DNA from: Candidatus Omnitrophota bacterium
GTDB lineage: Bacteria; Omnitrophota; Gorgyraeia; Gygaellales; JBFMHM01
Assembly: GCA_040753015.1 (NCBI GenBank)
Contig: JBFMHM010000002.1
Coordinates: 102,111-166,110, forward strand
DNA: 64,000 bases
Reading direction: 5' to 3'
Positions 6,431 through 35,982 of the stretch are shown here, in pieces. The notes under the pieces were generated by a model. The model saw only the letters and a program-made list of their open reading frames with translations. It did not search any database and was not told where the DNA came from. Every line of letters begins with the position of its first letter. The stretch's first letter is position 1. Position numbers and translations under genes: made by a program.

Positions 6431-6873
6431 TTAGGCCTCCTATTTAAAATGGCGTTGCTTTTAGACGGCTTTACGCCGATGAATTTCTCCATCGTAATCA
6501 TATTGCCTTTTTTGTTAAAACTCACTCGATCCATTAATTTTTTTATTAAAAAAACTCCTCTACCACTGGTCCTTTGTAAATTTTTGCCTAAAATTGGATT
6601 TGCAATTTTATTATAATTATAACCTTGCCCCTCATCCTTAATGCTTAAAATTATTAAATTATTATTTATTATTAAATTGCATTCAACTGTTAATTTTTTA
6701 TCAAATTTATTGCCATGTTTTATAGCATTAATTATGGCCTCTTCTAATGATAGCCTTATATCCTCTAAGGAATCCTTTGACAAATTTAATTCTTTTAACT
6801 GGCCTAATATTTCTCTGCTAACACAATTTATCTTTGATAAATCTGAAGATATTTTAAATATCATTGTTTCCAA
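6427..6873 (-). CDS. anti-sigma regulatory factor / GHKL serine-protein kinase (RsbW/SpoIIAB type)
   Basis: The HATPase_c N-box (EAIINAIKHGN) and G-boxes (IKDEGQGY ... SGRGVFLIKKLMD) are present. The protein is about 148 aa. Confidence 0.75.
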   Translation of the reverse strand: METMIFKISSDLSKINCVSREILGQLKELNLSKDSLEDIRLSLEEAIINAIKHGNKFDKKLTVECNLIINNNLIILSIKDEGQGYNYNKIANPILGKNLQRTSGRGVFLIKKLMDRVSFNKKGNMITMEKFIGVKPSKSNAILNRRPK

Positions 6874-21873: not shown

Positions 21874-22220
21874 TTATTAAGCTCCTTTTCTAACTGTAGC
21901 GTAATCTTTTCACTGCCTCTTATTAGAATAACCTCATTTTTCTTTATGTCAAATACTAAATAATCGTTAAAGGCTTGTCCCTTCTTCAAAACAATACCGT
22001 TGATAACCGCTAACGACTCGCCGCTCTTATCAAATACAATCCCTTCTAAATTCAGCACACTTGTTTCTTTCGGTTCAAGATCTATTATTTGTCCGGTTTC
22101 GGTAACAAGCGGCAAAAAAGGGTCTCTTTTATTTTTTGATTCATAAACAAATTTATTTTGTTCAGCAAATAAATTTAAAAAAATAAAAACAAATAATAAA
22201 TTTAATAAAAATATTTTCAT
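21870..22220 (-). CDS. pilP: PilP-like pilus assembly protein
   Basis: It is a small protein with a signal peptide, an RDPF motif, and sits between pilO and pilQ. Confidence 0.6.
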   Translation of the reverse strand: MKIFLLNLLFVFIFLNLFAEQNKFVYESKNKRDPFLPLVTETGQIIDLEPKETSVLNLEGIVFDKSGESLAVINGIVLKKGQAFNDYLVFDIKKNEVILIRGSEKITLQLEKELNK

Positions 22221-22786
22221 TATTTTACTATAAAAGCCCCTAGTGTTAAATGCACAACTTGGGTAGTATAAAGCTGCTTATCAAATTTTATATCAATAAA
22301 TAAAACCTTTAAGAATTGATCTAGGTTTTCTAGTTTATTTATAAACCTGCCCAATTGATGATAACCGCTATGTATATATATATTTATCATCACTGGATAA
22401 ATATCTCCCTTTGAATAGCCGCTGATCTTTTTTGCCTTTGGATCTTCTATAGGAGATATCTGGATTATTTTAACATCCTCCTCTCTACCAATCTTAGAAA
22501 TTTTTTCTACAAGAGTAAGCAGCTCATCTTCTTGTATAATTCTTTTGTCTAGACCGATTGATTTTTTATTTAAAATCTCAAAGCTTGCTTTTAATTGGTT
22601 TAAATTCTTTTTATCTTCCTCGAAAGCTTTTAAATCAGCCGATAATTTATTAATTTCTGGTGAAATTTTTTTTATTGTTAAGATTTGCGGTTTAATAATA
22701 AATAATATATCTATTGCCAAAACAGTAATTATAATTAATAAATAAATTATGATTTTTTTTTGTTTTAAAAAATCAAGCTTCATCAT
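22220..22786 (-). CDS. pilO: PilO-like pilus assembly protein
   Basis: It is bitopic with a coiled-coil region, and sits between pilN and pilP. Confidence 0.65.
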   Translation of the reverse strand: MMKLDFLKQKKIIIYLLIIITVLAIDILFIIKPQILTIKKISPEINKLSADLKAFEEDKKNLNQLKASFEILNKKSIGLDKRIIQEDELLTLVEKISKIGREEDVKIIQISPIEDPKAKKISGYSKGDIYPVMINIYIHSGYHQLGRFINKLENLDQFLKVLFIDIKFDKQLYTTQVVHLTLGAFIVK

Positions 22787-23343
22787 TTTATTTTAACCCT
22801 TAATATAAAATCAATTATATCGATACCTTGAAAATTTCTTTTTTTTGCATCTGCCAGCTCAAGCTTATCAGATACCTTAATATTTTTTTCATTCTTTAGA
22901 CTGGTTAAAAATTTATTGAGAAGCGACATCTCATCTTCTTTTAAGGAAACAACGCTTCCTTCAAGCTCAAATTCTGTTTCGTCTAATTTTAAGTGCCTAA
23001 ACCATATCCCGTTGGATAAATCCATGCTTAATCTATTTAACGCAAATGCTACTTCCATTCTATCTTTAGTAATATCTAAAATTTTACTGGTATCTGCCTG
23101 CAAGAGCTTAACTCTATTCTTGAGATCGCTGATTTCTTTTAGATCTTGTTCTATCTTAGGAACTATGGATTTAAGATTCCTAAATTTAATTTTTTTAAAA
23201 ATAAAAGTGCTCCCTATTAAAAGATGAATAAAGGCCAAAATAATTACTAAAGCAATAATAACATTATAATAAAAATCTTTATTAAATTCTGCATTAATGT
23301 TTTTTTTCTTTAGCTTTTCTGGCAATAAATTAATATCGATCAT
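22783..23343 (-). CDS. pilN: PilN-like pilus assembly protein
   Basis: It starts MIDINLLP, is bitopic, and follows pilM. Confidence 0.7.
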   Translation of the reverse strand: MIDINLLPEKLKKKNINAEFNKDFYYNVIIALVIILAFIHLLIGSTFIFKKIKFRNLKSIVPKIEQDLKEISDLKNRVKLLQADTSKILDITKDRMEVAFALNRLSMDLSNGIWFRHLKLDETEFELEGSVVSLKEDEMSLLNKFLTSLKNEKNIKVSDKLELADAKKRNFQGIDIIDFILRVKIK

Positions 23344-24336
23344 CTATAAACCTCTTAAAGCAAGCCCAAGCGATATTAATAGAGAATTCTTATTGGAATT
23401 AAACTTTTCGCGATCAACGCCTTCTTTTAATTCTATATTATCTATATTTGGCCAAAATAATACCTGTATACCAAGATAATTCTGTAAAATACCTTCAATT
23501 CCCTTAAGATTCGCTCCTCCGCCTGAAATAAAAATCTTCTTTATCGAAAAGTGAGCCTGGCTTTCATAATAATCAAACGAAGCCCGTATCTCAGAACAAA
23601 AATTTTGCATAGTTTGTTCGATTGCCGGATTAACTTTTTCCATGCCCTCTTTAGTACTGCATTTTAATTCCTCTGCTTGCTCAATAGATAAATTTAATTT
23701 ATCAGAAATAGCCTGCGTAAAAATATTACCTCCGAATAACAAATCCCTAGTAAATTCCGGATTACCATTATCAATAATTACCAAGTTGCTAACCTGGGAG
23801 CCAATATTTAAAAGAGCGAATGGCTCTTTATTGATCTCTCTATTAAAAAAATTGAATGCGTTAATTAAACATACGGAATCCACATCAATAACCCCTAAGT
23901 TTAAACCAAGCTCCTGAATAAGCTTAATCTTTTCATCAATTAAAGCTTTTTTAGCAGCAACAACTAAAACGAGCATCTTCTTATCAGCAAGGTCTTTTAA
24001 AATAAAACTATCTAAATAAACTTCGCTAATAGGAAATGGAATATGTTTTTCTGCCTCGAAATAAAGTGAATTTTTAAGCTCGGTATTAGTTAACTTCGGA
24101 AAAGTCAGATAGCGGATTAAAACATTCGGCCCGCCAACAGAGAGATTCACTGATTCTTTAGTAATATTAAAATTTTTAATCTGCGCCTTCAATGATTCAA
24201 AATTATTTGACTTGTTCTTTTCAATTATAAAACTATTGAGCGATATATTGCCAGAAATTCTCTCTAATGAAGTTAGTTTTATTGTATGATTACCAATATC
24301 CAATCCAAAAGTCTTTTTTGTTTTTTTAAATAACAT
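23344..24336 (-). CDS. pilM: type IV pilus assembly ATPase-fold protein PilM
   Basis: It has an actin-like fold (FGLDIGNHTIKL) and heads the pilMNOPQ block. Confidence 0.85.
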   Translation of the reverse strand: MLFKKTKKTFGLDIGNHTIKLTSLERISGNISLNSFIIEKNKSNNFESLKAQIKNFNITKESVNLSVGGPNVLIRYLTFPKLTNTELKNSLYFEAEKHIPFPISEVYLDSFILKDLADKKMLVLVVAAKKALIDEKIKLIQELGLNLGVIDVDSVCLINAFNFFNREINKEPFALLNIGSQVSNLVIIDNGNPEFTRDLLFGGNIFTQAISDKLNLSIEQAEELKCSTKEGMEKVNPAIEQTMQNFCSEIRASFDYYESQAHFSIKKIFISGGGANLKGIEGILQNYLGIQVLFWPNIDNIELKEGVDREKFNSNKNSLLISLGLALRGL

Positions 24337-24341
24337 ATAAA

Positions 24342-24566
24342 TTAAATAATAAGTGGCTCTTCTTGTTGTTCATCTGTACCTTTATCTTCTTTTTCTATAT
24401 TCTCTATATTAAATATTGGCTGTGCTGGCTGTTCGTCAACCTTAATACTTTCTTGTATTTGCTCGGGAATTTTTTTAGCTTCATTATTAATGTGATTTAT
24501 CCAAAATATAAAAACTAAAATAATTATAAAAAAGATAATAAATATATATAATAATTTCGACTTCAT
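24342..24566 (-). CDS. small single-pass membrane protein (start likely the internal MKSKLLYIFIIFF...)
   Basis: The hydrophobic helix is followed by an acidic tail. If the internal Met is the start, the gene begins right after the stop of the upstream gene. Confidence 0.35.
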   Translation of the reverse strand: MKSKLLYIFIIFFIIILVFIFWINHINNEAKKIPEQIQESIKVDEQPAQPIFNIENIEKEDKGTDEQQEEPLII

Positions 24567-26251
24567 TCTAAAACTCCTTCCTTCCAGGTAAGCAAGGCAC
24601 TTGGCCAAGTAGGTGTTGAAATATAATTACTTAAAGTAGGAAAATATGGCGGCGCATAACCCTCGAGCATTCTTTGATCATATATGAATTTTCTTCCATA
24701 GCCTGAGCGCAGATCACTTCCGCTAAAAGTTCCAAAAGCGCCATAAAAATCTGTGATTGCTCCACCTAGCAATGTAACATTGCCTGACGGCGACCTTGAA
24801 TCATAATTATCAACTGTAAATACGCCATGAACTGACATTATAACAGCATGTATATCTAAATTACTCGGGGCATCTGCCCCAATTCTAACATCACCGCCCC
24901 ATGATAAAAGACCTAAAAGATTTTCGTAACCAGTTGCATTAACTGGCGGGCCTGCATTATATTGTTCATAGCGTATATGATTATTAATCACTATATCTCT
25001 CTCGCTAGAGATTGTAACTTGGGAACAATTCTGGACCATACCGCTCACACCTCTGATATTTCCTTTTCCGTAAATTATTACACCTGCATCACCTACGCCA
25101 TCAGGAATACCTTGATAAGTATTTGAGTTCTCTCCTTCTCTTACAGTTGTTTGGTTATTTGCATAATCAACAATTATCTCCTTTGTCGTTGAACCTTGAG
25201 TAATCGCATATCTTGCATTACCACCAACGACAGACATTATTAAACTATCTGCATCGCCTCTTATATAAACACCGCCTGTCACATTAGCGCCATCGTTAGG
25301 CACATAAATTCCATCTTGCCCCGGCTCATTCATATCGCCAAGAGCCTGTACTCTTAAATCATTAGAAGTTACCACTGATTCTAAATTTATCAACGGCACA
25401 TCTCTTAAAAAATTAACGCCTTGCCCAAATTGAGGCACATCACGAGGAGGATTACTGCTAGCATCTAAAAAAATAGATCTGCCATTATTATAATAACGAG
25501 TTGTTTTCATTTTTTGAGATACTTCTATACCAGTATCAGACAACTTATCAAACCGGCCGCTTGGATTACCTGCAAAACTAAAACGCTCATTTGTGTGAAC
25601 TGGGCCATAAAATTGAGTTTTATCTGTAAACCAAACAGTAGTTCCGTTCTCCATCATATGATGAAAAGTAAAAAGTGCATACCTTGCAAAATTTCCACGC
25701 TGCACCCTAACAGAAAATTCACCATTTAAAAAAGAAACCTGCCTCGTAATATTAGGAGTAACAGCATTAATTAAACCTGTGCCTGTAATTCTAAATTTAT
25801 AAGGGAAGTTGTATACTTCTCCCTGTTTTGTAGGGATGCCGTTTGGACTGATAAAAATTGTCCCTGAATAAGTACCCCTAACATCGCTCCCCAAGCCAAT
25901 CGCTGTTAAACTAACTTGAGCCTCATTATTAATAATACTAAATTGCGGCTGGCCATCTTCATAAGCATAATCTGCCAAAAATCCTAAAGAATTATTAAGA
26001 TATTCATCAAAAGCATTATTTCTTGAAACTTTATTAAGCTGAATATTTAAATCTGAATTAATCCTTTTTCGCAGCTCTGATAAACCATGGTTAATTCCTG
26101 CTTCGGCTAGGTAAAGAGATTGATTAGCATATTTTGATGTATCGCTTGCTCTTTTTTCTGAAACAGTACTTGAGAAAAAAACTGCCGTTAAAATTAATAA
26201 TACCGATAAAACAAGCGCTGTTGCAACAAGTATAATCCCGCGTTTTTGCAT
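24563..26251 (-). CDS. large PilX_N-domain pilus-associated protein (candidate tip/adhesin component)
   Basis: The N-terminus (MQKRGIILVATALVLSVLLILTAVFFSS) resembles the PilX N-terminal domain. The remaining ~500 aa are a Gly/Asn/Thr-rich, predicted beta-rich ectodomain. Confidence 0.55.
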   Translation of the reverse strand: MQKRGIILVATALVLSVLLILTAVFFSSTVSEKRASDTSKYANQSLYLAEAGINHGLSELRKRINSDLNIQLNKVSRNNAFDEYLNNSLGFLADYAYEDGQPQFSIINNEAQVSLTAIGLGSDVRGTYSGTIFISPNGIPTKQGEVYNFPYKFRITGTGLINAVTPNITRQVSFLNGEFSVRVQRGNFARYALFTFHHMMENGTTVWFTDKTQFYGPVHTNERFSFAGNPSGRFDKLSDTGIEVSQKMKTTRYYNNGRSIFLDASSNPPRDVPQFGQGVNFLRDVPLINLESVVTSNDLRVQALGDMNEPGQDGIYVPNDGANVTGGVYIRGDADSLIMSVVGGNARYAITQGSTTKEIIVDYANNQTTVREGENSNTYQGIPDGVGDAGVIIYGKGNIRGVSGMVQNCSQVTISSERDIVINNHIRYEQYNAGPPVNATGYENLLGLLSWGGDVRIGADAPSNLDIHAVIMSVHGVFTVDNYDSRSPSGNVTLLGGAITDFYGAFGTFSGSDLRSGYGRKFIYDQRMLEGYAPPYFPTLSNYISTPTWPSALLTWKEGVLE

Positions 26252-26841
26252 TAGAATTCCCCCTCTTCACCAGCAATCTCTTCTACTGGCACATCATTAA
26301 TAACTACTGAATTATTGCGTAAAGATATTTGTGAACTCAAAACAAAAGTATCCTGATTTATTATAACCGGTATTCTAACCAATATTTCTGAACGCGATCC
26401 ATTTAAAAATTGGAAAAATGGTTTTTCAGATGCAACATTATTTATCACAGCGTCAGTTAGCGGAATTTGGCCACCGGCGCCTGCAATTCTGAATAATTGT
26501 TTGCCATCCTGTCCTGCACAGTAAATTCTCTCTTCCTGAAGACCTATGATCTCACCAGAAATATCAAAAATAGGCACATAAAATCTTATTGCATCTCCTG
26601 CTGCATTAATTTCTATCTCGTAATTAACACCATCAACTTGCCACATTGGCGCTGATTCACGCAGCTGCAAAGCAATAAAATCCATTGCCTTTCTTGCCTC
26701 TTGCTGAGTCTCTAATTTAAGCCTACCAATCCGCCAAGATTGATTTGAATAATATATAATACTTAATGTTAAACCGAAAATAAAAGAAAAAACAGCAACT
26801 ACAACTAAAATTTCGACTAATGTATACGCCCTGTTTTTCAT
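26251..26841 (-). CDS. minor pilin/pseudopilin (PilW/GspJ-like, prepilin N-terminal domain)
   Basis: The prepilin-type N-terminal helix is AYTLVEILVVVAVFS. Confidence 0.6.
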   Translation of the reverse strand: MKNRAYTLVEILVVVAVFSFIFGLTLSIIYYSNQSWRIGRLKLETQQEARKAMDFIALQLRESAPMWQVDGVNYEIEINAAGDAIRFYVPIFDISGEIIGLQEERIYCAGQDGKQLFRIAGAGGQIPLTDAVINNVASEKPFFQFLNGSRSEILVRIPVIINQDTFVLSSQISLRNNSVVINDVPVEEIAGEEGEF

Positions 26842-27300
26842 TTATCTCGACACCAAAGAAACAACTTCTATGGGAGAATCAAGACGGTTATTTGCATTTA
26901 AATCTTCGCCTGCGTCAAATAACCCATTTAGATTAATATCTTCGCCAATAAGCCTGTTTTGAGACTGCCTAAAAGAAACTATTATTCTTATTTCACGAAG
27001 ATCTGTATAGCCAGCTATATCCGTAACTTCAACCCTCCCTTTTGCCCTGCCCAAGGTAAAACCCGTCACATCAAAAACTTCGCCATTATGATTTAATAAA
27101 TTATCAAATGTTTCCTGTTTTAATTCTTCCATTTTTGTCCTAGCGCCGCTTAAAGCAATTGTTGTGTTTCTAGATGTTTCATTTAATATAAAACAACCAA
27201 TATATGTAACAAGTAAACCACATAAACAAAAAACTAATATTCCTGCGGCTACTAAAACTTCAATTAAAGTAAAACCAGAATTAATTTTTTTAATTTTCAT
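26842..27300 (-). CDS. minor pilin (PilV-like, prepilin N-terminal methylation domain)
   Basis: The N-terminus is SGFTLIEVLVAAGIL. Confidence 0.65.
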   Translation of the reverse strand: MKIKKINSGFTLIEVLVAAGILVFCLCGLLVTYIGCFILNETSRNTTIALSGARTKMEELKQETFDNLLNHNGEVFDVTGFTLGRAKGRVEVTDIAGYTDLREIRIIVSFRQSQNRLIGEDINLNGLFDAGEDLNANNRLDSPIEVVSLVSR

Positions 27301-27302
27301 AA

Positions 27303-27737
27303 CTATGAAAATATTGGGTCTGCCGCACTTGCAGGCCCACCTTCTTTAAACCGGACAATACCGCTTTGATCCATAAAAAAATAACGCGGATTACCAACAT
27401 TATTAATAGGATTCGCATTAATTATAAAACCACTATCTGTTTGAGAATAAAAAAAATTATAATTTTGCCTTCTTCCGGAAGCTAATTCAGTATCAATATA
27501 AGGCGGGGTTGAATTAGGAGGAATTAAATCTGCTAGGCCGCCGGGATATGCTTGATTATTGTTTAAAAATAATTGGCAGGCATTGTTAATTGCGCGCAAT
27601 CCGCTAACAGCCATTCCTTCGCTAGCTGTTGTGCGAGAACGCAATAGATTCGGAATCCCTATAGAAAGAATGACAAGAAGTATAGCAACAACAACCATCA
27701 TTTCAACTAAAGTAAACCCGAATCTTTGTTTATTCAT
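27303..27737 (-). CDS. type IV pilin / GspG-like pseudopilin
   Basis: The N-terminus is QRFGFTLVEMMVVVAILLVILSIGIPNLLRSR. Confidence 0.7.
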   Translation of the reverse strand: MNKQRFGFTLVEMMVVVAILLVILSIGIPNLLRSRTTASEGMAVSGLRAINNACQLFLNNNQAYPGGLADLIPPNSTPPYIDTELASGRRQNYNFFYSQTDSGFIINANPINNVGNPRYFFMDQSGIVRFKEGGPASAADPIFS

Positions 27738-27781
27738 TTAAATTTTTTATAATTTATAATAACAAATTTAATCTTAAATTA

Positions 27782-27809
27782 ATTTTACTATTTAGGTTAT
27801 AAAAGTCAA
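27782..27809 (-). promoter_or_regulatory. candidate sigma70 promoter for the downstream pilin/minor-pilin genes (TTGACT, 16-nt spacer, TAAAAT)
   Basis: The minus strand reads cTTGACTtttataacctaaatagTAAAATt. It lies between the terminator hairpin and the ATG at 27737. Confidence 0.35.
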
Positions 27810-27820
27810 GTAAAAGATAC

Positions 27821-27857
27821 TAAAAAATACCCCGATACAAAAATTGTATCGGGGTAT
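27821..27857 (-). terminator. intrinsic terminator after the major pilin gene
   Basis: A perfect 12-bp stem (ataccccgatac / gtatcggggtat) with a 5-6-nt loop is followed on the minus strand by a T-run (TATTTTTTAG). Confidence 0.55.
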
Positions 27858-27879
27858 TTGTGTGTGCTAGAACTATAAA

Positions 27880-28287
27880 TTATGCGCAAGCTGCTGAGGT
27901 TAACACGCCGCCAGTAGTAATAGTATAAGTATTATTTCCTGTGGTACCGCAAGTTACCGGAGTTGCTGTCACTGTATAACCTGCTGCTGCTGTATTAACA
28001 GCAAAATTATAGCCTTGAAGGGCTATACCATTATAACCTCTGTTTAGATACGGAGGATTTGCACCAGTCAAAGCAGCCTCGTTTGCAGGATAGTTACCAT
28101 TATTTGCTGCTGCAAATGTCTCACATGCAGTTGAAATTGTACGCAAGGTTGCTTGTGCATTTGATTCATTAGCTGTTAATCTCGCACGAAGTAAGTTTGG
28201 AATTGCAATTGCTGCCAAAAGCGCAATAATAGCAACTACTATCATAATTTCGACGAGAGTGAAACCTTTTCTATTCTTTATAAACAT
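27880..28287 (-). CDS. pilA: major type IV pilin (PilA-like); real start is the internal MFIKNRKGFTLVEIM
   Basis: AGGAGG lies 9 nt upstream of the ATG at 28285-28287. The class III signal peptide is KGFTLVEIMIVVAIIALLAAIAIPNLLRAR, and the C-terminal Cys pair would form the disulfide loop. Confidence 0.75.
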   Translation of the reverse strand: MFIKNRKGFTLVEIMIVVAIIALLAAIAIPNLLRARLTANESNAQATLRTISTACETFAAANNGNYPANEAALTGANPPYLNRGYNGIALQGYNFAVNTAAAGYTVTATPVTCGTTGNNTYTITTGGVLTSAACA

Positions 28288-28382
28288 ATAGATAACGCCT
28301 CCTTTCTTAGGTATAATTAATCCCAAGCTTCTTTAAAAAATAAAATGAAACCAATAAAAAAGCCCTGATTACCTAATGTCTT

Positions 28383-28420: not shown

Positions 28421-29617
28421 TTAAGCGCTTATTAAAGAAGTTATTTTAAAAATCGGTAAAAATAAAGCAACAACTATCCCTCCAATTACAGTTCCTAAAA
28501 AAACAATTACAAGCGGCTCAATCATATTTGATAGATTGGCCAACGTAATATCGACTTGTTCTTCGTAAAAATCTGCGATCTTGCCAAGCATTTTTTCGAG
28601 TTCGCCTGTCTGTTCTCCTACAGAGATCATCCTTGTAACCATCGGCGGAAAAATACGGCTTTCCATAAGAGGTTTTGCAATCGGTTCCCCCTCTTTAATA
28701 GATACCCTACTTTTTTCTATCGCCTCTTCAACAATTTTATTGCCTGAAGTTTTTGAAACTATTTCAAGGGCTGTTAAAATTGGAACGCCGCTTTTTACTA
28801 AAGTAGAAAATGTACGGCTGAATTTTGCAACAGCCATATTACGAAATAACGGACCAAAGATGGGAGCTTTTAAAATAATCTTATGAAAATTATATTTACC
28901 TTTTTCAGTATTAACATACTTTTTAAATAAAAAAGCGCTAATTATCAAAATGATCACTGTTAATAAAAAATTATACCTTAGTAAATCACTCGCGGCAATT
29001 AAAATTTTTGTTGGCATAGGCAATGTTCCTCCTAGCATCTCAAAAATCCCTTTAAATGTCGGAACAACCTTAATTAAAAGAAAAGAAGTAATACCAATAG
29101 CTATAATTATAACTAAAACTGGATAAACTAAGGCAGACTTCACTTTTCTGATGAATGAAGCGGTTTTTTCTAAATAAGTTGCGAGCCTTTCTAAAACAGC
29201 ATTCAGCATACCTGATGCCTCGCCCGCTTTTGCCATATTAACAAAAAGTTCGCTAAAGATTGCGGGATGTTTTTTTAATGCATCACAAAAATTTATTCCT
29301 TGTTCAATATCCTGTTTTATTTTTAAAATTATACTGGCAAGATATTTATTATCTGTTTGTTCGGATAGAATAAGAAGAGCCTGGACTAATGGTATTCCGC
29401 TATCGACTAAAGTTGCAAGCTGCCTTGCAAAACCAGCTAGCTGATCAAGTTTAATTGTTTTCTTTGCAACTAATTTAGATTTTTCTTCAATTAAAGAAAT
29501 TATCGTGAGGTCTTTTTTGTGAAGAATCGCTTGGGCTTCCTTTGTATCTAAAGCTTCTAATGCCCCCTTAAGAGTATCGCCATTAATATTTTTTACGGTG
29601 TATTTGAAATTCGCCAT
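28421..29617 (-). CDS. pilC: type IV pilus inner-membrane platform protein PilC (GspF family)
   Basis: The fold is a duplicated GspF/PilC domain with three TM helices. Confidence 0.9.
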   Translation of the reverse strand: MANFKYTVKNINGDTLKGALEALDTKEAQAILHKKDLTIISLIEEKSKLVAKKTIKLDQLAGFARQLATLVDSGIPLVQALLILSEQTDNKYLASIILKIKQDIEQGINFCDALKKHPAIFSELFVNMAKAGEASGMLNAVLERLATYLEKTASFIRKVKSALVYPVLVIIIAIGITSFLLIKVVPTFKGIFEMLGGTLPMPTKILIAASDLLRYNFLLTVIILIISAFLFKKYVNTEKGKYNFHKIILKAPIFGPLFRNMAVAKFSRTFSTLVKSGVPILTALEIVSKTSGNKIVEEAIEKSRVSIKEGEPIAKPLMESRIFPPMVTRMISVGEQTGELEKMLGKIADFYEEQVDITLANLSNMIEPLVIVFLGTVIGGIVVALFLPIFKITSLISA

Positions 29618-29618
29618 A

Positions 29619-30686
29619 TTATACCTTGTCTAATACCTTTAAAAAAACTTCAACAATTTTAGGATCAAATTGGCTCCCGGAATTCCTCTTGATTTCTTCT
29701 ATTGCCTCTTGTTTAGATAAAGGCGTCTTCCTATAAGATCTAGCAGAAGTCATTGCATCATAGCTATCAGCAACACAAATTATTCTAGCTCCTAAAGGAA
29801 TCTGTTCTCCTTTTAGCCCATCTGGATAGCCCTTACCATCAAAACGCTCATGATGATGTTTTATCAACCCGATTGTATTATCTAAAAAGGTTAATGGTTC
29901 TAAAATTTGAACTGCTTTAATTGTATGCAATTCTACCTCGCGCCTTTCTTCTTTGGTTAATTTACCAGGCTTACTTAAAATATAGTCTGATATGCCTATT
30001 TTACCCAAATCATGAAGTTGGCAAGCTTCTTTGATTATCTCAATTTCTTTCGCCGGTAGATTCAATTCTTCTGCAATTAATAATGCATACTTAGACACCT
30101 TCTCAGAATGGCTTGAAGTAAAATGATCCCTTGCTTCAATAGCCTGCGCAAAAGCATTAACAGTACGTAGGTATGTCTGCCTTAAATCATCATATAACCG
30201 GCTTAGATTTTTTGTCGAATCTTCGATCCTTTTCGCAAGCAGTATATTTTGTTTTTGCAAAGACATATTTTGTTCAGATAAAGCCCTGTCAGCCTTATGC
30301 GAATGCACAGTTATATTCCTTGCTTCAATTGCTTTTTTAATAATAAAAACTAAATGGTTAAAATCAACAGGGAGATTTAAATAATCATAAATTTCTGCTC
30401 TATAAATTTCCGAAAAGACATCCGGGCTTAAATTTTCAACCAAAGCAATAATAATACTATCTGGATCTACTTCTTTTATCGCTCTAACCATATCAATGCC
30501 GGTAAGTTCTTCCGTGCTCCATTGAATAATAATGACATCAAAAGAAATTTTACGTATTAGATTAATTCCTGACCAAAAATGATTTTCGCTTTTAATTTGG
30601 CAATTCAAAATCATTAAAGCTTGTTTTATTGTCTTTACGATTGTTTCATCTTTATTAATAATCAAAATGTTAATATTTTCGTTCAC
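29619..30686 (-). CDS. pseudo-receiver / HD-GYP c-di-GMP phosphodiesterase
   Basis: The C-terminus has HD ... HHERFDGKGYPDGL. The N-terminal REC-like domain lacks the acidic pocket (NKDE replaces DDE) and lacks the phospho-acceptor Asp (IIIQWS). Confidence 0.8.
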   Translation of the reverse strand: MNENINILIINKDETIVKTIKQALMILNCQIKSENHFWSGINLIRKISFDVIIIQWSTEELTGIDMVRAIKEVDPDSIIIALVENLSPDVFSEIYRAEIYDYLNLPVDFNHLVFIIKKAIEARNITVHSHKADRALSEQNMSLQKQNILLAKRIEDSTKNLSRLYDDLRQTYLRTVNAFAQAIEARDHFTSSHSEKVSKYALLIAEELNLPAKEIEIIKEACQLHDLGKIGISDYILSKPGKLTKEERREVELHTIKAVQILEPLTFLDNTIGLIKHHHERFDGKGYPDGLKGEQIPLGARIICVADSYDAMTSARSYRKTPLSKQEAIEEIKRNSGSQFDPKIVEVFLKVLDKV

Positions 30687-30699
30687 AATGTTATCCTTT

Positions 30700-32397
30700 T
30701 TATTCTTCGGTGGTTGCTTCTACTGCTTCTTCTAAAGAAATAACCCCTTGCTGAACTTTTAATAAAGCGTCATCTCTTAAAGTTCTCATCTTTAGTTCTT
30801 TAATAGCATACTCGTTAATCTGAGAAGAATCAACTTTTTTCACAATCATCTCACGAATTTTATCATTAATAATAAGCGCCTCTAATATTGCAACCCTGCC
30901 TAAATAACCTGTATTATTACAGTATTGACATCCCTTGCCTCTAAAAAAAGTTATTTTATCTTTAATTCTTAATTTTTCAATTAAATCTTTTGGAACGCTT
31001 TCTTCTTCTTTGCAATGCGTGCATATTTTTCTACATAATCTTTGAGCGCAAGCAAAAATTAAACTTGAAGCAATAAGAAATGGTTCAACTCCCATATCAA
31101 TCAATCTAGTTATGCTGGAAGCCGCGTCATTTGTATGCAAAGTCGAAAGTATTAATTGTCCTGTAAGCGATGCTTTAACGGCAATATCTGCGGTTTCACC
31201 ATCGCGAATTTCTCCAATCATTATAACATCCGGGCTCTGCCTAAGTAAAGACCTGAGCCCTTGTGCAAAATCTAAGCCAATTTCCGGCTTAACCTGCACC
31301 TGAGTAATACCTTCGATCTGATATTCTACAGGATCTTCAATAGTAATAATATTTTTTTGTGGAGTATTTAGCTGTGTAACAATTGAATATAACGTTGTTG
31401 ATTTTCCTGATCCTGTTGGGCCAGTGACTAAAATCATGCCAAAAGGTTTTTTTATTGCTTCTTGGAAAAGCCTTAAAGGTTCTTCCGAAAAACCTAGCTT
31501 CTCAAGGCCGAAAGAAAGATTGCCCTTATCTAATGCTCTTAAAACGAACTTCTGGCCAAAATTAATCGGCAGGCATGAAACACGAAAATCAATTTCTCTA
31601 CCTTCTAATCTAACTTTAAAACGCCCGTCCTGTGGAATACGTGATTCTGTAATATCCATGCCAGAAACTATTTTTAGCCTTGCCGTTACTGCATTTTGCT
31701 TTGACCTAGGAATATTAAACACTTCGTGTAAAATTCCGTCAATTCGATATCTGATACGAACCATTCCTTCCTCGGGCTCAATATGGATGTCCGAAGCCCT
31801 TCTTTTAAGTGCTTCTATTATTAATAAATCTACGAGTTTTACAATTGGTGCTTTTGAGCTTTCTTCAATTAACTCACCTAAATTCATAGAAGATTCTTCT
31901 TTTACCACCTCAACATCTTCACCTAAACTTTGCGCCTCTAAAACAAGCTTAGATAAATCTTCACCTTTTTTATAATAACTATCTATAGCTAAAACTATAT
32001 CTTGTTCTGATGTCAGAACTAAATCAATCTTAAAACCGGTTAGAACCTTTAAATCGTCTAAAGCAAAAATATTAAGAGGATCCACGATAGCAACAGTAAG
32101 AGTTTTTCCAATGACTGAAATTGGAATTAATTGATATTGACGGCAAATTTTTTCTGGAACTAATCCAATTACAGACGGCTCTATTTTATATTTAGATAAT
32201 TTAATATGGGGTATTAATAATTCTCGAGATAATAAAGCAATAAGATCATCTTCGGAAATAACTTTTTCTTTTAATAAAATATCGCGGAATGATTCTTTTG
32301 TCTGCTTATGTGATTTAAGCAACGACTCTATCTGTTCCTTAGTCGCTTTTTTATCTTTCGTCAAAACTTCTATAAGTGTATCTTTAAGGCTTATCAT
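30700..32397 (-). CDS. pilB: type IV pilus assembly ATPase PilB (GspE family), paralog 1
   Basis: It has an N-terminal GSPII_E_N domain, Walker A (GPTGSGKSTTLYS), Asp/His boxes and the tetracysteine motif (CTHC ... CQYC). Confidence 0.85.
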   Translation of the reverse strand: MISLKDTLIEVLTKDKKATKEQIESLLKSHKQTKESFRDILLKEKVISEDDLIALLSRELLIPHIKLSKYKIEPSVIGLVPEKICRQYQLIPISVIGKTLTVAIVDPLNIFALDDLKVLTGFKIDLVLTSEQDIVLAIDSYYKKGEDLSKLVLEAQSLGEDVEVVKEESSMNLGELIEESSKAPIVKLVDLLIIEALKRRASDIHIEPEEGMVRIRYRIDGILHEVFNIPRSKQNAVTARLKIVSGMDITESRIPQDGRFKVRLEGREIDFRVSCLPINFGQKFVLRALDKGNLSFGLEKLGFSEEPLRLFQEAIKKPFGMILVTGPTGSGKSTTLYSIVTQLNTPQKNIITIEDPVEYQIEGITQVQVKPEIGLDFAQGLRSLLRQSPDVIMIGEIRDGETADIAVKASLTGQLILSTLHTNDAASSITRLIDMGVEPFLIASSLIFACAQRLCRKICTHCKEEESVPKDLIEKLRIKDKITFFRGKGCQYCNNTGYLGRVAILEALIINDKIREMIVKKVDSSQINEYAIKELKMRTLRDDALLKVQQGVISLEEAVEATTEE

Positions 32398-32399
32398 TG

Positions 32400-34109
32400 C
32401 TATTCATCCGGGGCTGTTATTCTTACTACCTCTTCTAAAGTTGTAATGCCTTCGCTTGCTTTCTCCATACCTTCCTCTCTCAACGTAAGCATACCTTCAT
32501 CCCTGCTTATTTTTTTAATCATGTATTCCTGGGCGCCTTCCAAAACAAGATCTCTAATTTTAGGCGTCAAAATTAGCACTTCAGCAATAGCAACTCTTCC
32601 TTTATAGCCGGTATTAAAACATTGCGCGCAACCTTTTGCTCTATAGAATTTTCTTGTTGGAATTTTTTTTAAATTCAGAGACTGCATTATATCATCGGAT
32701 AAAACATATTCTTCTCGGCAACTTACACAAACTTTTCTAAGAAGCCGTTGAGCAATAATCGCAATAACAGATGAAGTAATTAAAAAGGGCTCTATGCCAA
32801 TATTGGCTAAACGCATAACAGCTGCAGGAGCTGTTGTGGTATGAACAGTAGTTAATACTAGATGCCCTGTTAACGCTGCCTTAATTGATATATCAGCTGT
32901 TTCATGATCCCTAATCTCACCTACCATAATAACATCGGGATCCTGTCTTAATATTGAACGTAGGCAGCTTGCAAAAGTTAAATCAACCTCTGGCCTTATG
33001 TTAACTTGATTTATACCTGCCAACTGAAATTCAATTGGATCTTCAACCGTTATAATATTCTCTCTTGGGGTATCAATAAACTCTAATATAGAATATAACG
33101 TTGTAGTCTTTCCTGACCCAGTAGGGCCGCAAACAATAATCATGCCATGTGGTTTTTGTGAAGACCTCTTAATTCTATCTAATGCAGTTTGGGAAAAACC
33201 TAATTTTTCAATATCAAGCTGAGCTTGCGATTTATCTAATACGCGAAGAGCAACCTTTTCCCCAAACGAAGAGGCAATAACAGAAACACGAAAATCCACT
33301 TCCCGCGTACCTATTTTTATTTTAAAACGACCGTCTTGAGGAAGCCTATGCTCGGCAACATTAAGATTAGAAATAACCTTTATCCTGGAAACAATAGGCG
33401 CAAGCATAGATTTTGGCGGAGACTCCTGCTCTTGTAAAACACCGTCTATTCTATATCGAACACGCATCCTATTTTCTAATGGTTCAATTAAAATATCTGA
33501 TGCATACATATTAACTGCTTTTTCTAAAATCATGTTTGCTACTTTTATAACCGGGGCCTCATTTATAATTTGATTTATTGTAGCCAAAGAAAAAACTTCT
33601 TCTTTCTCGGCTCTAATTAACTCAATACTCCCGTCCTTAAAACCTTCGACCAGCTCTTCTATAGCTTCTTTTGCGCTTTCTTCATAATATTGATTTATAG
33701 TAGCATTAAGTTCTGAAGGAGAAACGATAACAGGAGTTATTTGATAGCCTGTAAGACTCTTAACATCATCGATTGCGAATACATCTAAAGGATCGCTCAT
33801 TGCAAGTGTTAGAGTCTTTCCAATCAAGGATACTGGGATAATTTGATATCGATGCGCTAAATCTTTACTGATGATTTTTATAACTGACCTTTCGATTTTA
33901 ATCCGCTTCAGGTCAATAATCGGGAATCCGAGGCCTTCGCTCAAAACTGGAAATAACTCTTTTTCTTTGATCAGATTATCTTCTATTAATATATCAACAA
34001 GCCTCTTCCTTCTCTTCTTGGCTAAATCAATAGCTTCTTTTAATTTGATTTCGGAGATTAAATTATTTTTTATTAAAATCTCATAAACTCTCTGAGCAAT
34101 TGATATCAT
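32400..34109 (-). CDS. GspE/PilB-family assembly ATPase, paralog 2
   Basis: The architecture matches paralog 1 (GPTGSGKTTTLYS; CVSC ... CAQC). It is about 45% identical to paralog 1 by eye. Confidence 0.8.
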   Translation of the reverse strand: MISIAQRVYEILIKNNLISEIKLKEAIDLAKKRRKRLVDILIEDNLIKEKELFPVLSEGLGFPIIDLKRIKIERSVIKIISKDLAHRYQIIPVSLIGKTLTLAMSDPLDVFAIDDVKSLTGYQITPVIVSPSELNATINQYYEESAKEAIEELVEGFKDGSIELIRAEKEEVFSLATINQIINEAPVIKVANMILEKAVNMYASDILIEPLENRMRVRYRIDGVLQEQESPPKSMLAPIVSRIKVISNLNVAEHRLPQDGRFKIKIGTREVDFRVSVIASSFGEKVALRVLDKSQAQLDIEKLGFSQTALDRIKRSSQKPHGMIIVCGPTGSGKTTTLYSILEFIDTPRENIITVEDPIEFQLAGINQVNIRPEVDLTFASCLRSILRQDPDVIMVGEIRDHETADISIKAALTGHLVLTTVHTTTAPAAVMRLANIGIEPFLITSSVIAIIAQRLLRKVCVSCREEYVLSDDIMQSLNLKKIPTRKFYRAKGCAQCFNTGYKGRVAIAEVLILTPKIRDLVLEGAQEYMIKKISRDEGMLTLREEGMEKASEGITTLEEVVRITAPDE

Positions 34110-34553
34110 TTATTTTTTATAAAATTTGTCAATTGCATTTTTTATATCGCTAAATGTACTTACAAAAATCTGCACGCTTAATTTTGTAAGAGTTTCAATA
34201 TCTTCTACTGCCTGTAGATTTAAAGGATTTGACATTGACACAGTTAGGGTATTGCCAATCTTGTCAATTGGCATCAGGCAATACTGGCGACAAACTCTCT
34301 CTGGAATAATACTGATTATTTCAGAGCCAATTTCATAATTAGAGAGCGGTAAATAGGGATAGCCGTATTGAGTAGTTATCGCCTGAGCAATATCAATTTC
34401 TTTAGCATAACCCATATCAACTAAAACTTCACCAATTAAACCACCCTTTTGTTTTTGCAATAAAAGGGCCTCGTTTAGTTGATCCTGAGTGATAATTTTT
34501 CTTTCAATTAGAAGCTCGCCTAACTGCTTAGTAATTATTTTTCGTGATGGCAT
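34110..34553 (-). CDS. standalone MshEN-like + GSPII_E N-terminal domain protein (candidate c-di-GMP receptor)
   Basis: Two 24-aa motifs separated by 5 aa (LGELLIERKIITQDQLNEALLLQ - KQKGG - LIGEVLVDMGYAKEIDIAQAITTQ) fit the MshEN c-di-GMP-binding consensus. They are followed by a T2SS-E N-terminal domain. Confidence 0.65.
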   Translation of the reverse strand: MPSRKIITKQLGELLIERKIITQDQLNEALLLQKQKGGLIGEVLVDMGYAKEIDIAQAITTQYGYPYLPLSNYEIGSEIISIIPERVCRQYCLMPIDKIGNTLTVSMSNPLNLQAVEDIETLTKLSVQIFVSTFSDIKNAIDKFYKK

Positions 34554-34554
34554 C

Positions 34555-35982
34555 TTAAGCTAAAATTACTCCTTTCGATTCTTTGCTACCAGAAAGCAGC
34601 TCTCTTGCCTTTGTTATTAATTCATTAGCGTTTACTCCATCAAGAGGATTTTCAGAAACCGCAATATTTAATATAATAGGTAACATAATTTCTTTATCAT
34701 TAGATAATAAAGAATCAATCAATCTTTTTAGTTTTATTGCTTTTTCTTTTGCTTGTTTTTTATTTTTTTCAGGAATCACGATAGCGAAACTATTCGAGTT
34801 AAAACGCCCGGCTTTTTCTACAGGGCTTAATTCATCTTTTATTATTAAAGCAATTTTCTTTAGTGCTTTTTCAGCTGTGATATCTCCAAACTGCTGTCTG
34901 TAATCTCTAAAATTTATTATCTCCAGGTCTAAAAATGAACACGGCCTTTGAAACATAATCGCTCTTTTGATTTCATCTTCAAGATAATTAATAATAAAAT
35001 TTTCATTATAAAGCCCTGTTAAAGCATCCCTGGTTTCGAGCTGCTTTACCCTATGAATTAAAGCATCGTTTTCAATAGCTATAGAAATTTGTTTTGAAAA
35101 AATATTTAAAAAATCCATAGACTCTTGGACAAAGAAGAAATCCTCTATATTGTTGCCTATAATCAACATGCCTACAACTTCTTGCTTTGTTACAATCGGA
35201 ATCAATATAATATTCCTTAAACTTAACTCATCAATCAACGCCTGCTCATCCTTTGTAATTTTTTTCCTAGAAACATCTAAAACCAAAACTTTTTTCTCTT
35301 CTATAATTTTTAGAAATAATTTTCCAATATCTCCTTTATCTAAAAATATCTGCTTATTGAATAAAGATTTGGCAAGCTTTCCAGATGCACACACTACTTT
35401 ATAATTTAAACGCTCCTGTTCACTTTTACTAAATAGGACTGCTGCCTCACAACCAGGTATTGCCTGCATCTTTTCAACTGTTGATGATAAAATTTCATCC
35501 AAGGAAAGACCCTGAGTAATAAGATTGCTAACCTGTAGAATACCTGAGAGAACCAATATCCTATTTTGTATCTGAATATTTGTCCTTTGTGCCTCTTGGC
35601 CAAAGACATTTAATTGCTGCATATTATCTTTAACTTTCGAAGTAATTTCATTTAGTGCAGCGCCTAAATCTCCCAGCTCATCTTCTCTGTCTATCTTAAT
35701 CCTTCTTGTATAATCACCATTTGCAATTAATTTTGCATCATTGCTCATTCTAATAAGCGGCTCGATAATCTGTTTAATAAGCAAAAACCCTCCGTATGCA
35801 ACACAAATACTAACTAAAACTATAAATGTAAAATTGATTTTTTTTGAAGCTAGAAGGCTGATATAATCAGAAAAAACATATAATATAACAAGAATAGGAA
35901 TGACAAACGTAAGCGCAAAGGAAATTTTTAGGACATATCGCAGGCTCTTAGTAGTAAGAGAAATTTTTTTTGCTTTCAGCAT
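34555..35982 (-). CDS. membrane HAMP / GGDEF-domain protein with degenerate active site
   Basis: Two TM helices are followed by HAMP and a GGDEF-fold region (RDALTGLYNENF...). The signature reads AGRFNSNSF where GG(D/E)EF is expected. Confidence 0.65.
   Translation of the reverse strand: MLKAKKISLTTKSLRYVLKISFALTFVIPILVILYVFSDYISLLASKKINFTFIVLVSICVAYGGFLLIKQIIEPLIRMSNDAKLIANGDYTRRIKIDREDELGDLGAALNEITSKVKDNMQQLNVFGQEAQRTNIQIQNRILVLSGILQVSNLITQGLSLDEILSSTVEKMQAIPGCEAAVLFSKSEQERLNYKVVCASGKLAKSLFNKQIFLDKGDIGKLFLKIIEEKKVLVLDVSRKKITKDEQALIDELSLRNIILIPIVTKQEVVGMLIIGNNIEDFFFVQESMDFLNIFSKQISIAIENDALIHRVKQLETRDALTGLYNENFIINYLEDEIKRAIMFQRPCSFLDLEIINFRDYRQQFGDITAEKALKKIALIIKDELSPVEKAGRFNSNSFAIVIPEKNKKQAKEKAIKLKRLIDSLLSNDKEIMLPIILNIAVSENPLDGVNANELITKARELLSGSKESKGVILA

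Follow-up and report, generated by a model that had tools for sequence, protein, structure and literature searches.

[quoted passage not shown] In Vibrio cholerae MshE, binding is lost in the G11L variant and is 72-fold weaker in G40I (PMC5013675); mutation of R9 changes affinity less than 5-fold. Position 1 of the motif is given in published versions of the consensus as R (original), [RKPN] (relaxed), or R/K/L (extended). R, K, or L is tolerated at this position, and leucine predicts high affinity in the GSPII-B domain of Thermus PilF, whose own position-1 leucine, L196, is part of the extended consensus (PMC11731258). The GSPII-A domain of PilF still does not bind when a perfect consensus is restored (PMC12002112), and a good motif is therefore no guarantee of binding. 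A small Pseudomonas aeruginosa protein, PA3740, has been reported to bind c-di-GMP (Wang et al. 2016). Literature searches on MshEN, on free-standing domains, and on PA3740 turned up no report of an MshEN gene that stands alone within a pilus operon. Type IVa pili are near-universal in the Omnitrophota, where a role in host-cell attachment has been proposed; the paper that reports this mentions neither PilB nor c-di-GMP (PMC10066038).

RESULTS

A predicted free-standing MshEN domain in an Omnitrophota pilus operon. The DNA analyzed here is a 64-kb stretch of an Omnitrophota genome (the window). An earlier note on this DNA had pointed to an open reading frame at 34110..34553 and left out its strand. 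The frame is present on the minus strand, as are all genes described below; it starts with ATG and encodes a 147-aa protein, which we call M. The two 24-residue motifs and five-residue spacer that had been quoted are exact: motif I (aa 10 to 33, QLGELLIERKIITQDQLNEALLLQ; 34455..34526) aligns without gaps to MshE R9-Q32, the spacer KQKGG (aa 34 to 38; 34440..34454) has the length of the MshE spacer, and motif II (aa 39 to 62, LIGEVLVDMGYAKEIDIAQAITTQ; 34368..34439) aligns with MshE R38-Q61. The match to consensus claimed for these motifs stands at the position-3 glycines and the terminal glutamines. It is imperfect at position 1, where motif I has Q and motif II has L in place of the consensus R, and at position 10 of motif I, with K instead of G. 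A loosened tandem pattern, which asked for the hydrophobic register, a position-3 Gly, the terminal Gln, and a spacer of 5 aa, gave one match in the six-frame translation of the window, at the coordinates of the M motifs, and none in 100 shuffles of the sequence. The relaxed published pattern, [RKPN]hGxxhhxx[GAS]hhxxxxhxxxhxx[QNKRYWST], matched neither M nor the two downstream PilB homologs in four genomes; it fails because position 1 is Q or L and position 10 is K and, judged from these sequences, is too strict at noncritical positions to be informative about M. A protein 100% identical to M occurs in a "Candidatus Omnitrophota" metagenome-assembled genome (MAG), where it is annotated as a hypothetical protein.

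Profile and structure comparisons both place M in the MshEN family. The region after the motifs (aa 63 to 146; 34116..34367) is a T2SSE_N1-type alpha/beta subdomain, MshEN_C, that matches Pfam PF05157 (MshEN / T2SSE_N) at 70.5 bits (cutoff, 23.1; E value, 1.2e-19), as expected from the GSPII_E_N fold suggested earlier. The earlier note had also staked its proposal on whether a profile alignment would superimpose the motifs and had called for alignment with Vibrio MshE. Residues 10 to 62 of M lie on positions 1 to 53 of the curated 53-position NCBIfam model NF053729 ("c-di-GMP_motif") at 60.8 bits (curated cutoff, 38), with ten M orthologs scoring 56 to 71 bits, and phmmer aligned M residues 2 to 144 with residues 2 to 144 of MshE (5HTL; E value, 2e-16), the motifs being ungapped. 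The alignments thus did not refute the proposal. In the same search of the Protein Data Bank (PDB), PilF (4e-44) and PilB (2e-27), matched like MshE over the full length, scored better still. M has no match to the T2SSE ATPase core (PF00437), and TIGR02538 aligns with it over profile positions 2 to 137 of 564 only (81 bits; cutoff, 676), so that the label "PilB" carried by some M homologs is a misnomer.

The AlphaFold2 (AF2) model of M (pLDDT, 90.5) has helices at residues 11 to 17, 23 to 36, 40 to 46, and 52 to 63, strands at 93 to 99, 102 to 107, and 126 to 131, and further helices, which together give the two-subdomain MshEN fold of a four-helix bundle and an alpha/beta part with a three-stranded sheet. 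Its first 10 residues are unstructured and helix alpha1 begins at residue 11, so no helix extension that would block the site is predicted. Foldseek returned the crystal structure of MshE with c-di-GMP (5HTL) as the top match (TM score, 0.80/0.84; root mean square deviation, 2.2 Å), with 9G1W, 6EJF, 8PDK, 7LKM, and 2D28 also among the top matches. By sequence profile and predicted structure, M is thus a free-standing and complete MshEN domain, comprising the four-helix bundle and the alpha/beta N1 subdomain.

The candidate ligand site is conserved in M and degenerate in PilBa and PilBb. We aligned 111 family members of 146 to 154 aa (64 to 93% identity), taken from the best 120 matches and drawn from many samples and assemblies. 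The motif position-3 glycines, G12 and G41 (MshE G11/G40), are invariant (111/111), the terminal glutamines nearly so (Q33 in 110/111, Q62 in 111/111), I55 is invariant, and L11, L26, and L30 are invariant or at least 99% conserved; 101 of the 111 proteins keep both glycines, the hydrophobic register, and both glutamines together. Both Gly and both Gln are likewise present in M of 12/12 genomes. In the MshEN_C subdomain, the segments 63 to 73 and 107 to 120 are invariant. Spacer residues G37 and G38 are nearly invariant, and Q10, at position 1 of motif I, is found in 108/111. [quoted passage not shown] At position 19 the family has G (88/111), K (10), or N (8). M itself has K, notwithstanding which AF2 still predicts the alpha1-alpha2 turn, and the turn glycine of motif II, G48 (MshE G47), is present. 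The hydrophobic triads of M would be L11/I55/I59 and L26/L30/I40, with three isoleucines where MshE has leucine; positions 40, 55, and 59 are also Ile in the nonbinding PilF GSPII-A.

As had been noted, two full-length PilB-type ATPases come immediately after M as the genes are transcribed: PilBa (569 aa; 32400..34109; Pfam T2SSE, 1e-133, plus MshEN) and PilBb (565 aa; 30700..32397; Pfam T2SSE, 2e-134, plus MshEN). Both have a degenerate MshEN_N region. In PilBa of this genome the motif I glycine is replaced by Y, the motif II glycine by V, and both terminal glutamines are gone; in PilBb the glycines are replaced by I and R, respectively. Across genomes, PilBa has the motif I Gly in 0/13, the motif II Gly in 1/13, and the motif II Gln in 0/13 sequences, and PilBb has them in 0/10, 5/11, and 2/11, respectively. 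Mean pairwise identity of the N-terminal bundle is 64.8% for M compared with 42.1% for PilBa and 38.6% for PilBb, the ATPase cores standing at 62 to 66%; the PilB bundles thus evolve much faster than that of M. NF053729 scores for PilBa (33.9 bits) and PilBb (22.1 bits) of this genome are below the cutoff of 38, but we dropped the model as a general discriminator, since 9/11 PilBa and 7/11 PilBb orthologs pass that cutoff. The case for decayed sites in the ATPases is consequently made at the level of single residues, among which the glycines weigh most. As the PilB N-domains match MshEN models without these Gly and Gln residues, their retention in M appears to serve something besides folding.

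Genomic context of M. The gene is tightly packed between its neighbors. On one side, the stop codon of a membrane HAMP-GAF-GGDEF protein (34555..35982; Pfam HAMP, GAF, and GGDEF) ends 1 nt ahead of the M start codon; by ortholog alignment, this protein has a degenerate active site (NSNSF) and its RxxD site is missing. On the other, the TAA of M is followed by the ATG of PilBa with a gap of 0 nt. Downstream of PilBb lie a REC-HD-GYP c-di-GMP phosphodiesterase (29619..30686; Pfam HD_5, HD, and Response_reg), the platform protein PilC (28421..29617; Pfam T2SSF, 3.7e-64), and the remainder of the type IVa pilus cluster (20194..28326), with major and minor pilins, PilM, PilN/O/P-like open reading frames, and the PilQ secretin (matches to N_methyl pilin, PilM_2, and Secretin; open reading frame list). 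The HD-GYP protein retains its catalytic motifs, HDLGK and HHERFDGKGYP, and its receiver is without a phospho-acceptor Asp, Q55 being aligned with CheY D57. No active diguanylate cyclase was found within the window.

PilBa, PilBb, and PilC follow M in all 16 related loci (L001-L014, L029-L031), and this synteny persists in members as low as 40 to 45% identical. Stop and start codons in these loci often abut or overlap, and locus L007 has a second M-like gene. Natural fusions join an M-like domain to PilB (P0131 and P0153, of the Rosetta-stone kind) and to PilZ (P0150 and P0151). The earlier suggestion that M acts in trans gains support from the synteny, the abutting or overlapping codons, the decayed PilB sites, and the MshEN-PilB fusions. 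Its description of the arrangement as unusual is apt relative to model organisms but does not hold within the Omnitrophota, where M-PilBa-PilBb is standard. A scan of a genome collection with M alone gave 23 loci, so few because the peptide patterns are very specific. Among these loci there was no free-standing M gene outside the Omnitrophota; the matches there are N termini of full-length PilB proteins in Geobacteraceae, Acidobacteriota, and Planctomycetota. On sequence grounds, M represents a strongly conserved Omnitrophota family and not a rarity.

DISCUSSION

Our preferred reading, to which we give a probability of about 60%, is that M is a detachable subunit that senses c-di-GMP in trans for the type IVa pilus motor of the Omnitrophota. 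What we observe is the identity and fold of the domain, its conserved residues, the synteny, and the decayed sites of the ATPases; that M binds the ligand, which partner it has, and which way the effect goes are inferred. M would be cotranslated with both PilB paralogs from one tightly packed operon and would bind a single c-di-GMP between its two 24-residue motifs. In this model, the Hoogsteen edges of the guanines would meet the backbone amides of G12-E13 and G41-E42, the bases would lie stacked against two hydrophobic clusters (L11/I55/I59 and L26/L30/I40), and ribose and phosphate would be contacted by Q33 and Q62. MshEN_C offers a highly conserved surface by which M might dock onto PilBa, PilBb, or both, or onto the platform partners PilM or PilC, and docking would couple the c-di-GMP level to pilus extension. 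M would in this way supply in trans the sensing that the PilB N-domains have lost, with the local c-di-GMP level set by the coencoded HD-GYP phosphodiesterase. By analogy with MshE and PilF, activation or assembly is the favored effect on the pilus.

M might instead be a structural subunit that works independently of the ligand. It would be an additional docking module of the N1 type, either bridging the contacts of the PilB hexamers with PilM, with PilC, or with each other or competing for them, and its motif residues would be kept for protein contacts or stability. We regard this as rather improbable, even though MshEN_C (mean pairwise identity among M orthologs, 65%) is as conserved as the N-terminal bundle, which suggests an important protein interface. 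The relevant precedents are that GspE N1 binds GspL and Xanthomonas PilB-N binds PilZ, and 2BH1, 4PHT, and 7LKM are among the structural matches of M; moreover, motif I has an off-consensus Q at position 1 and, in this copy of M, no turn Gly, and PilF GSPII-A is a natural nonbinding MshEN domain with a near-consensus motif I. Fold and docking nevertheless leave the invariance of the M residues unexplained, since PilB N-domains match MshEN models without the Gly and Gln. The conserved residues of M correspond one to one to the c-di-GMP contacts mapped in MshE and PilF-B, M passes the c-di-GMP-motif model along its whole length, and c-di-GMP turnover domains are encoded beside it.

A different possibility, which we consider quite unlikely, is that M is a c-di-GMP-controlled decoy or inhibitor, a mimic of PilB N1 that blocks docking at the platform or at PilB, with c-di-GMP toggling the block or picking the PilB paralog. 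This alternative has ligand binding in common with the sensor reading; the output is reversed or redirected. M is a complete copy of the PilB docking domain, two PilB paralogs are always downstream of it, locus L007 has its second M-like gene, and inhibitors of PilB are known, e.g., CpiA (reviewed in PMC11656802). A stoichiometric partner fits the abutting or overlapping codons and the covalent PilB fusions (P0131 and P0153) better, however, and in MshE, PilF, and Myxococcus PilB pilus function is promoted when c-di-GMP is bound. A further alternative, that M is a truncated PilB pseudogene, a frameshift-split PilB, or another annotation artifact, could appeal to its covering only the N-terminal quarter of PilB and to homologs named "type IV pilus assembly protein PilB." It is effectively refuted by conservation: of the best 120 matches, 111 are the short proteins of the family alignment, every M locus has its own ATG and stop codon, and M is as conserved as the ATPase core. 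That M is the split-off N-domain of PilBa is ruled out, as PilBa keeps a complete N-domain.

Returning to M as a sensor subunit, we can extend the idea speculatively, to a version that we think improbable as a whole. A diffusible, c-di-GMP-loaded M would be common to two PilBs with dead sites and would choose which ATPase, or whether a PilBa/PilBb hetero-hexamer, engages the PilC/PilM platform, while at the motor the pseudo-receiver HD-GYP and degenerate GGDEF proteins would constitute a local microcircuit for c-di-GMP. Such split sensing, if true, would be a distinct form of second-messenger control of the type IV pilus in a phylum whose members are ultra-small and possibly host attached. The route by which the signal passes from MshEN ligand binding to the motor is still unsettled (PMC11656802), and the M system bears on it: a separate, strongly conserved sensor candidate beside ATPases with decayed sites would be a clean test bed, since ligand binding, docking, and activation of the motor could each be assayed on their own. 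M also provides a definite point from which to approach regulation of the Omnitrophota type IVa pilus, and thousands of entries now called "hypothetical protein" or "PilB" could be renamed as free-standing MshEN c-di-GMP-receptor candidates.

Among known systems, V. cholerae MshE (5HTL) shares with M the two 24-residue motifs, the 5-residue spacer, MshEN_C, and an ungapped motif alignment, at an overall sequence identity of only 27%. Its contact residues G11, G40, L10, L25, L29, Q32, and Q61 are identical in M, while L39, L54, and L58 correspond to I40, I55, and I59, and R9, R38, and G18 are replaced by Q, L, and K. The MshE domain is covalently joined to its ATPase, whereas M is a separate polypeptide. 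Thermus thermophilus PilF (GSPII-A/B/C; 6F8L, 8PDK, and 9G1W) is the best PDB sequence match of M (4e-44), in four stretches. In PilF, a series of MshEN domains precedes a single ATPase; taken together, M and the N-domain of PilBa can be viewed as a two-domain version in which the outer domain, part of a single chain in PilF, is a separate gene. GSPII-B has a position-1 Leu in motif II as M does and has no Arg at all, yet it binds at 6 nM. The outermost PilF domain, GSPII-A, is nonbinding; here, the arrangement is the opposite, with an intact site in the outer, free M and a degenerate domain attached to the ATPase. The ideal N-cap motif by which GSPII-A is blocked (L4-T5-I6-G7-D8-K9) is absent from M (R4-K5-I6-I7-T8-K9).

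P. aeruginosa PA3740 (MshEN-xT2SSE_N1) and Cyanothece cce_1044 ((MshEN_N)2) (Wang et al. 2016) resemble M in being small and in having a c-di-GMP motif and no T2SSE ATPase. Neither is described as lying in a pilus operon between a GGDEF-family gene and two PilBs, and the C subdomain is highly diverged in PA3740 and missing from cce_1044, whereas MshEN_C of M is canonical and very conserved. The FimX-PilZ-PilB relay of Xanthomonas and Pseudomonas (7LKM/7LKO) is a functional analogy: it too has a degenerate GGDEF-family protein in the module, and the PilB-N/PilZ complex is among the structural matches of M. The sensors are not homologous, however. In the relay, sensing is performed by an EAL domain with PilZ as adaptor, while the sensor proposed here is a free copy of the PilB N-domain.

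M is a complete, free-standing MshEN domain

M, the free-standing 147-aa MshEN-domain protein, is encoded by an ORF at 34110-34553 on the minus strand (ATG start, 147 codons). The peptides quoted in the earlier note occur exactly in its translation: motif I, QLGELLIERKIITQDQLNEALLLQ (aa 10-33; 34455-34526, minus strand), the spacer KQKGG (aa 34-38, minus strand), and motif II, LIGEVLVDMGYAKEIDIAQAITTQ (aa 39-62; 34368-34439, minus strand). When the window was translated in all six frames and scanned with a loosened tandem pattern (a position-3 Gly, the hydrophobic register, Gln at the end of each motif, and a spacer of 5 residues), the single match fell at these motif coordinates; 100 shuffles gave none. 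The Pfam MshEN model PF05157, which spans the C subdomain only, matched aa 63-146 (E 1.2e-19), bearing out the claim that the remainder has a GSPII_E_N-type fold, and the curated 53-position NCBI model NF053729 (“cyclic di-GMP-binding domain, MshE-related”) aligned its positions 1-53 with aa 10-62 at 60.8 bits (cutoff 38).

Among PDB sequences, M had full-length matches to Thermus PilF (E 4e-44, repeated over four stretches), Geobacter PilB (E 2e-27), and Vibrio MshE (5HTL; E 2e-16, with query residues 2-144 on chain residues 2-144). The N-terminal 68 aa aligned with MshE gap-free through both motifs, equating Q10 with R9, L11 with L10, G12 with G11, K19 with G18, L26 with L25, L30 with L29, and Q33 with Q32 in motif I, and L39 with R38, I40 with L39, G41 with G40, G48 with G47, I55 with L54, I59 with L58, and Q62 with Q61 in motif II. 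The motifs thus superimpose in both the NF053729 and the MshE alignments, the profile check that the earlier note had proposed. An AlphaFold2 model from a 78-sequence alignment (mean pLDDT 90.5) begins with 10 nonhelical residues, followed by helices at 11-17, 23-36, 40-46, and 52-63, and then an alpha/beta subdomain. Foldseek ranked c-di-GMP-bound MshE first among PDB entries (TM 0.80/0.84, rmsd 2.2 A, 138 columns), followed by the PilF GSPII domains, Xanthomonas PilB-N, and XpsE-N.

Predicted c-di-GMP site

The decisive contacts in MshE are the backbone amides of the position-3 Gly and the following residue; G11L makes binding undetectable, G40I causes a 72-fold loss, single Leu-to-Ala changes in the two Leu triads weaken binding >10-fold, the terminal Gln pair contacts ribose and phosphate, and mutation of R9 changes affinity <5-fold (Wang et al. 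2016, PMC5013675). All Gly, hydrophobic, and Gln contact positions are filled in M, with Ile for Leu at three hydrophobic contacts. The match to the MshEN consensus claimed earlier stands for the position-3 Gly, the hydrophobic register, and the terminal Gln of both motifs; M deviates from it at position 1 (Q/L, not R) and at the motif I Gly of the alpha1-alpha2 turn, which is Lys. The Gln at motif I position 1 lies outside every published version of the consensus, and because of it the published relaxed pattern finds no match in M. The Leu at motif II position 1 fits the consensus as extended to (R/K/L)LG... by Neissner et al. (2024, PMC11731258), who reported 6 nM binding by PilF GSPII-B, whose position-1 residues are Lys and Leu; a hydrophobic first residue was proposed there as a predictor of high affinity.

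A near-consensus motif can nevertheless fail to bind, as PilF GSPII-A shows: its site is blocked by an N-cap-stabilized extension of helix alpha1 and by intersubdomain contacts, and restoring a perfect consensus does not bring binding back (PMC12002112). Whereas GSPII-A has an ideal N-cap (L4-T5-I6-G7-D8-K9), M (R4-K5-I6-I7-T8-K9) lacks both an S/T/D cap and an acidic N3 residue, and the helix extension is absent from its model; these differences argue weakly that the M site would not be blocked in this way.

Family and distribution

A Candidatus Omnitrophota MAG encodes a protein 100% identical to M, annotated as “hypothetical protein,” and a protein search with M gave 3564 matches at E <=1e-3. 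Among the best 120 of these, all those with a name are Omnitrophota, and 111 are 146- to 154-aa proteins with 64-93% identity to M. Residues L11, G12, L14, L15, L26, G38, G41, I55, T60, and Q62 are invariant in the 111; Q33 is kept in 110 and Q10 in 108, and at position 19 there are 88 members with G, 10 with K, and 8 with N. The two Gly, the two Gln, and the complete hydrophobic register are all retained in 101 of the 111. When 1.84 billion cluster representatives were searched exhaustively without a profile, 20055 matched, including many more free-standing 145- to 180-aa proteins at 40-60% identity, the named ones almost all from Omnitrophota. Position 1 in these distant relatives is usually R or K, which makes the Gln of the core clade a derived state. 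Among the genome loci compared, the hits outside Omnitrophota fell in the N-terminal part of full-length PilBs. Planctomycetota, too, have PilBs in tandem, and the second of the two has a strikingly M-like QKQKGG-LIGDILV segment that suggests where M may have originated.

A variant of 213-221 aa (L031 197-844; P0005-P0012) occupies the same operon slot and carries an extra N-terminal four-helix bundle, an additional MshEN_N, ahead of the complete domain; it may bind two c-di-GMP molecules. Locus L007 has a second, divergent MshEN-only gene (11212-11679; 155 aa, 40% identical, motif I beginning PRIGEIL) between PilBb and PilC, the slot of HD-GYP in other genomes.

Operon context and c-di-GMP turnover

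The genes around M are, all on the minus strand and in order of transcription, radical SAM (36084-37763), HAMP-GAF-GGDEF (34555-35982), M (34110-34553), PilBa (32400-34109), PilBb (30700-32397), REC-HD-GYP (29619-30686), PilC (28421-29617), and pilins, PilM, PilN/O/P-like proteins, and PilQ (20194-28326), separated by 101, 1, 0, 2, 13, 1, and 94 nt; mreBCD-PBP2-rodA lies upstream. All related loci examined (L001-L014, L029-L031) share the order M-PilBa-PilBb-PilC, including those with M homologs at just 40-45% identity, and the stop codon of one gene often abuts or overlaps the start codon of the next. Flanking regulators differ: REC-HD-GYP separates PilBb from PilC in one clade and is replaced in another by a PilT-like ATPase of 355 aa encoded just upstream of M, and the GGDEF-family gene is truncated or missing in some loci.

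The PilT-like gene directly upstream of the MshEN-only gene (L003, L008, L010-L012, L014, L030) and the HD-GYP gene downstream of PilBb (window, L001, L005, L006, L029) are mutually exclusive in the examined loci. Both PilBs of the tandem pair (30700-34109, minus strand) are full-length with Walker and tetracysteine motifs; the paralogs are kept across Omnitrophota, and a pair also occurs in Planctomycetota/Brocadiaceae loci L019, L020, L022, and L027. In related genomes, the radical-SAM gene consistently separates rodA from the pilus operon.

In the REC-HD-GYP phosphodiesterase of the operon, the catalytic motifs HD..GK and HHExxDGxGYP are intact; its receiver is a pseudo-receiver without the phospho-acceptor Asp, having Q55 (K in three orthologs) at the position aligned to CheY D57. 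The membrane HAMP-GAF-GGDEF protein has NSNSF at the GGDEF site and no RxxD I-site, and in this genome is most likely a noncatalytic sensor or scaffold. Its orthologs read GDDEF, GPDEF, GDNQF, ADNEF, SGDSF, GDNTF, SGDEF, RDDRF, GGDEF, or GGNEI, and only that in L001 keeps the I-site. We found no intact cyclase within the 64-kb window. Metagenomic close relatives of M, P0150 and P0151, fuse an M-like domain to PilZ, two c-di-GMP receptor types in one chain, and metagenomic P0165 fuses one to a DnaA-type AAA+ module.

The window (1-64000) holds 53 non-overlapping ORFs of 90 aa or more, every one of them on the minus strand. They include a 3584-aa ORF (44696-55450) with ClpB-like AAA_2 modules, long pentapeptide-repeat tracts, and a C-terminal M50-type peptidase; an adjoining 1312-aa ORF (55483-59421) with no Pfam match; and genes for a CHASE2-SpoIIE (PP2C) phosphatase (92-1993), a STAS anti-anti-sigma-like protein (6092-6430), and an HATPase_c_2 anti-sigma-like kinase (6427-6873), which jointly form a partner-switching module.

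M is conserved where the PilB N-domains drift

In an alignment of N-termini anchored on the MshE and PilF domains, the position-3 Gly of motif I is present in 12/12 M proteins versus 0/13 PilBa (T, I, K, Q, N, A, S, M, or Y) and 0/10 PilBb (A, I, V, or S), that of motif II in 12/12, 1/13, and 5/11, and the terminal Gln of motif II in 12/12, 0/13, and 2/11; M keeps the motif I Gln in 12/12 genomes. Mean pairwise identities across the same ten genomes for M, PilBa, and PilBb are 64.8%, 42.1%, and 38.6% in the four-helix bundle and 65%, 51%, and 51% in the C subdomain, and the ATPase core stands at 61.8% in PilBa and 65.6% in PilBb. The M bundle is about as tightly constrained as the catalytic core, while the PilBa and PilBb bundles are drifting and have lost the nucleotide-reading residues. 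NF053729 alone does not separate M (56-71 bits, 11/11 above cutoff) from PilBa (24-62 bits, 9/11) and PilBb (18-55 bits, 7/11) outside the window's genome, in which PilBa (33.9 bits) and PilBb (22.1 bits) both fall under the cutoff.

Interpretation

The best-supported reading, to which we give a probability of roughly 0.6, is that M is a trans-acting c-di-GMP sensor subunit of the type IVa pilus motor; we infer its ligand binding, its partner, and the sign of its regulation alike. Such a domain could instead serve as a ligand-independent docking module, which we consider unlikely: the drifting PilBa and PilBb N-domains still match MshEN models after losing these Gly and Gln residues, so their invariance in M is best explained by predicted ligand binding. 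Natural fusions join an M-like domain to a complete PilB that follows it (P0131, 765 aa; P0153, 783 aa), and the inner N-domain of P0131 again lacks the motif I Gly. With two PilBs encoded downstream, M might also act as a c-di-GMP-controlled decoy or inhibitor, or as a selector between them, which we judge less probable still. A gene fragment is scarcely credible for a protein conserved as tightly as the ATPase core.

Much is already established about the MshEN domain, its motif, and what it does in PilB-type ATPases. The many MshEN architectures listed by Wang et al. include the small non-ATPase proteins PA3740 and cce_1044; a complete MshEN standing alone ahead of pilus ATPases is absent from their table (PMC5013675). 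Literature searches on MshEN, free-standing domains, and PA3740 turned up no account of a pilus operon with a free-standing MshEN gene, and a search for pilus and c-di-GMP terms in an Omnitrophota study found no mention of PilB or of c-di-GMP (PMC10066038). The family is widespread and misannotated, and M would be well suited to experiments that tease sensing apart from motor function. It does not overturn the understanding of the pilus-ATPase c-di-GMP system; M and PilB together would resemble a PilF-like multi-MshEN ATPase whose ligand-competent outer domain has been split off as a separate, cotranslated protein.
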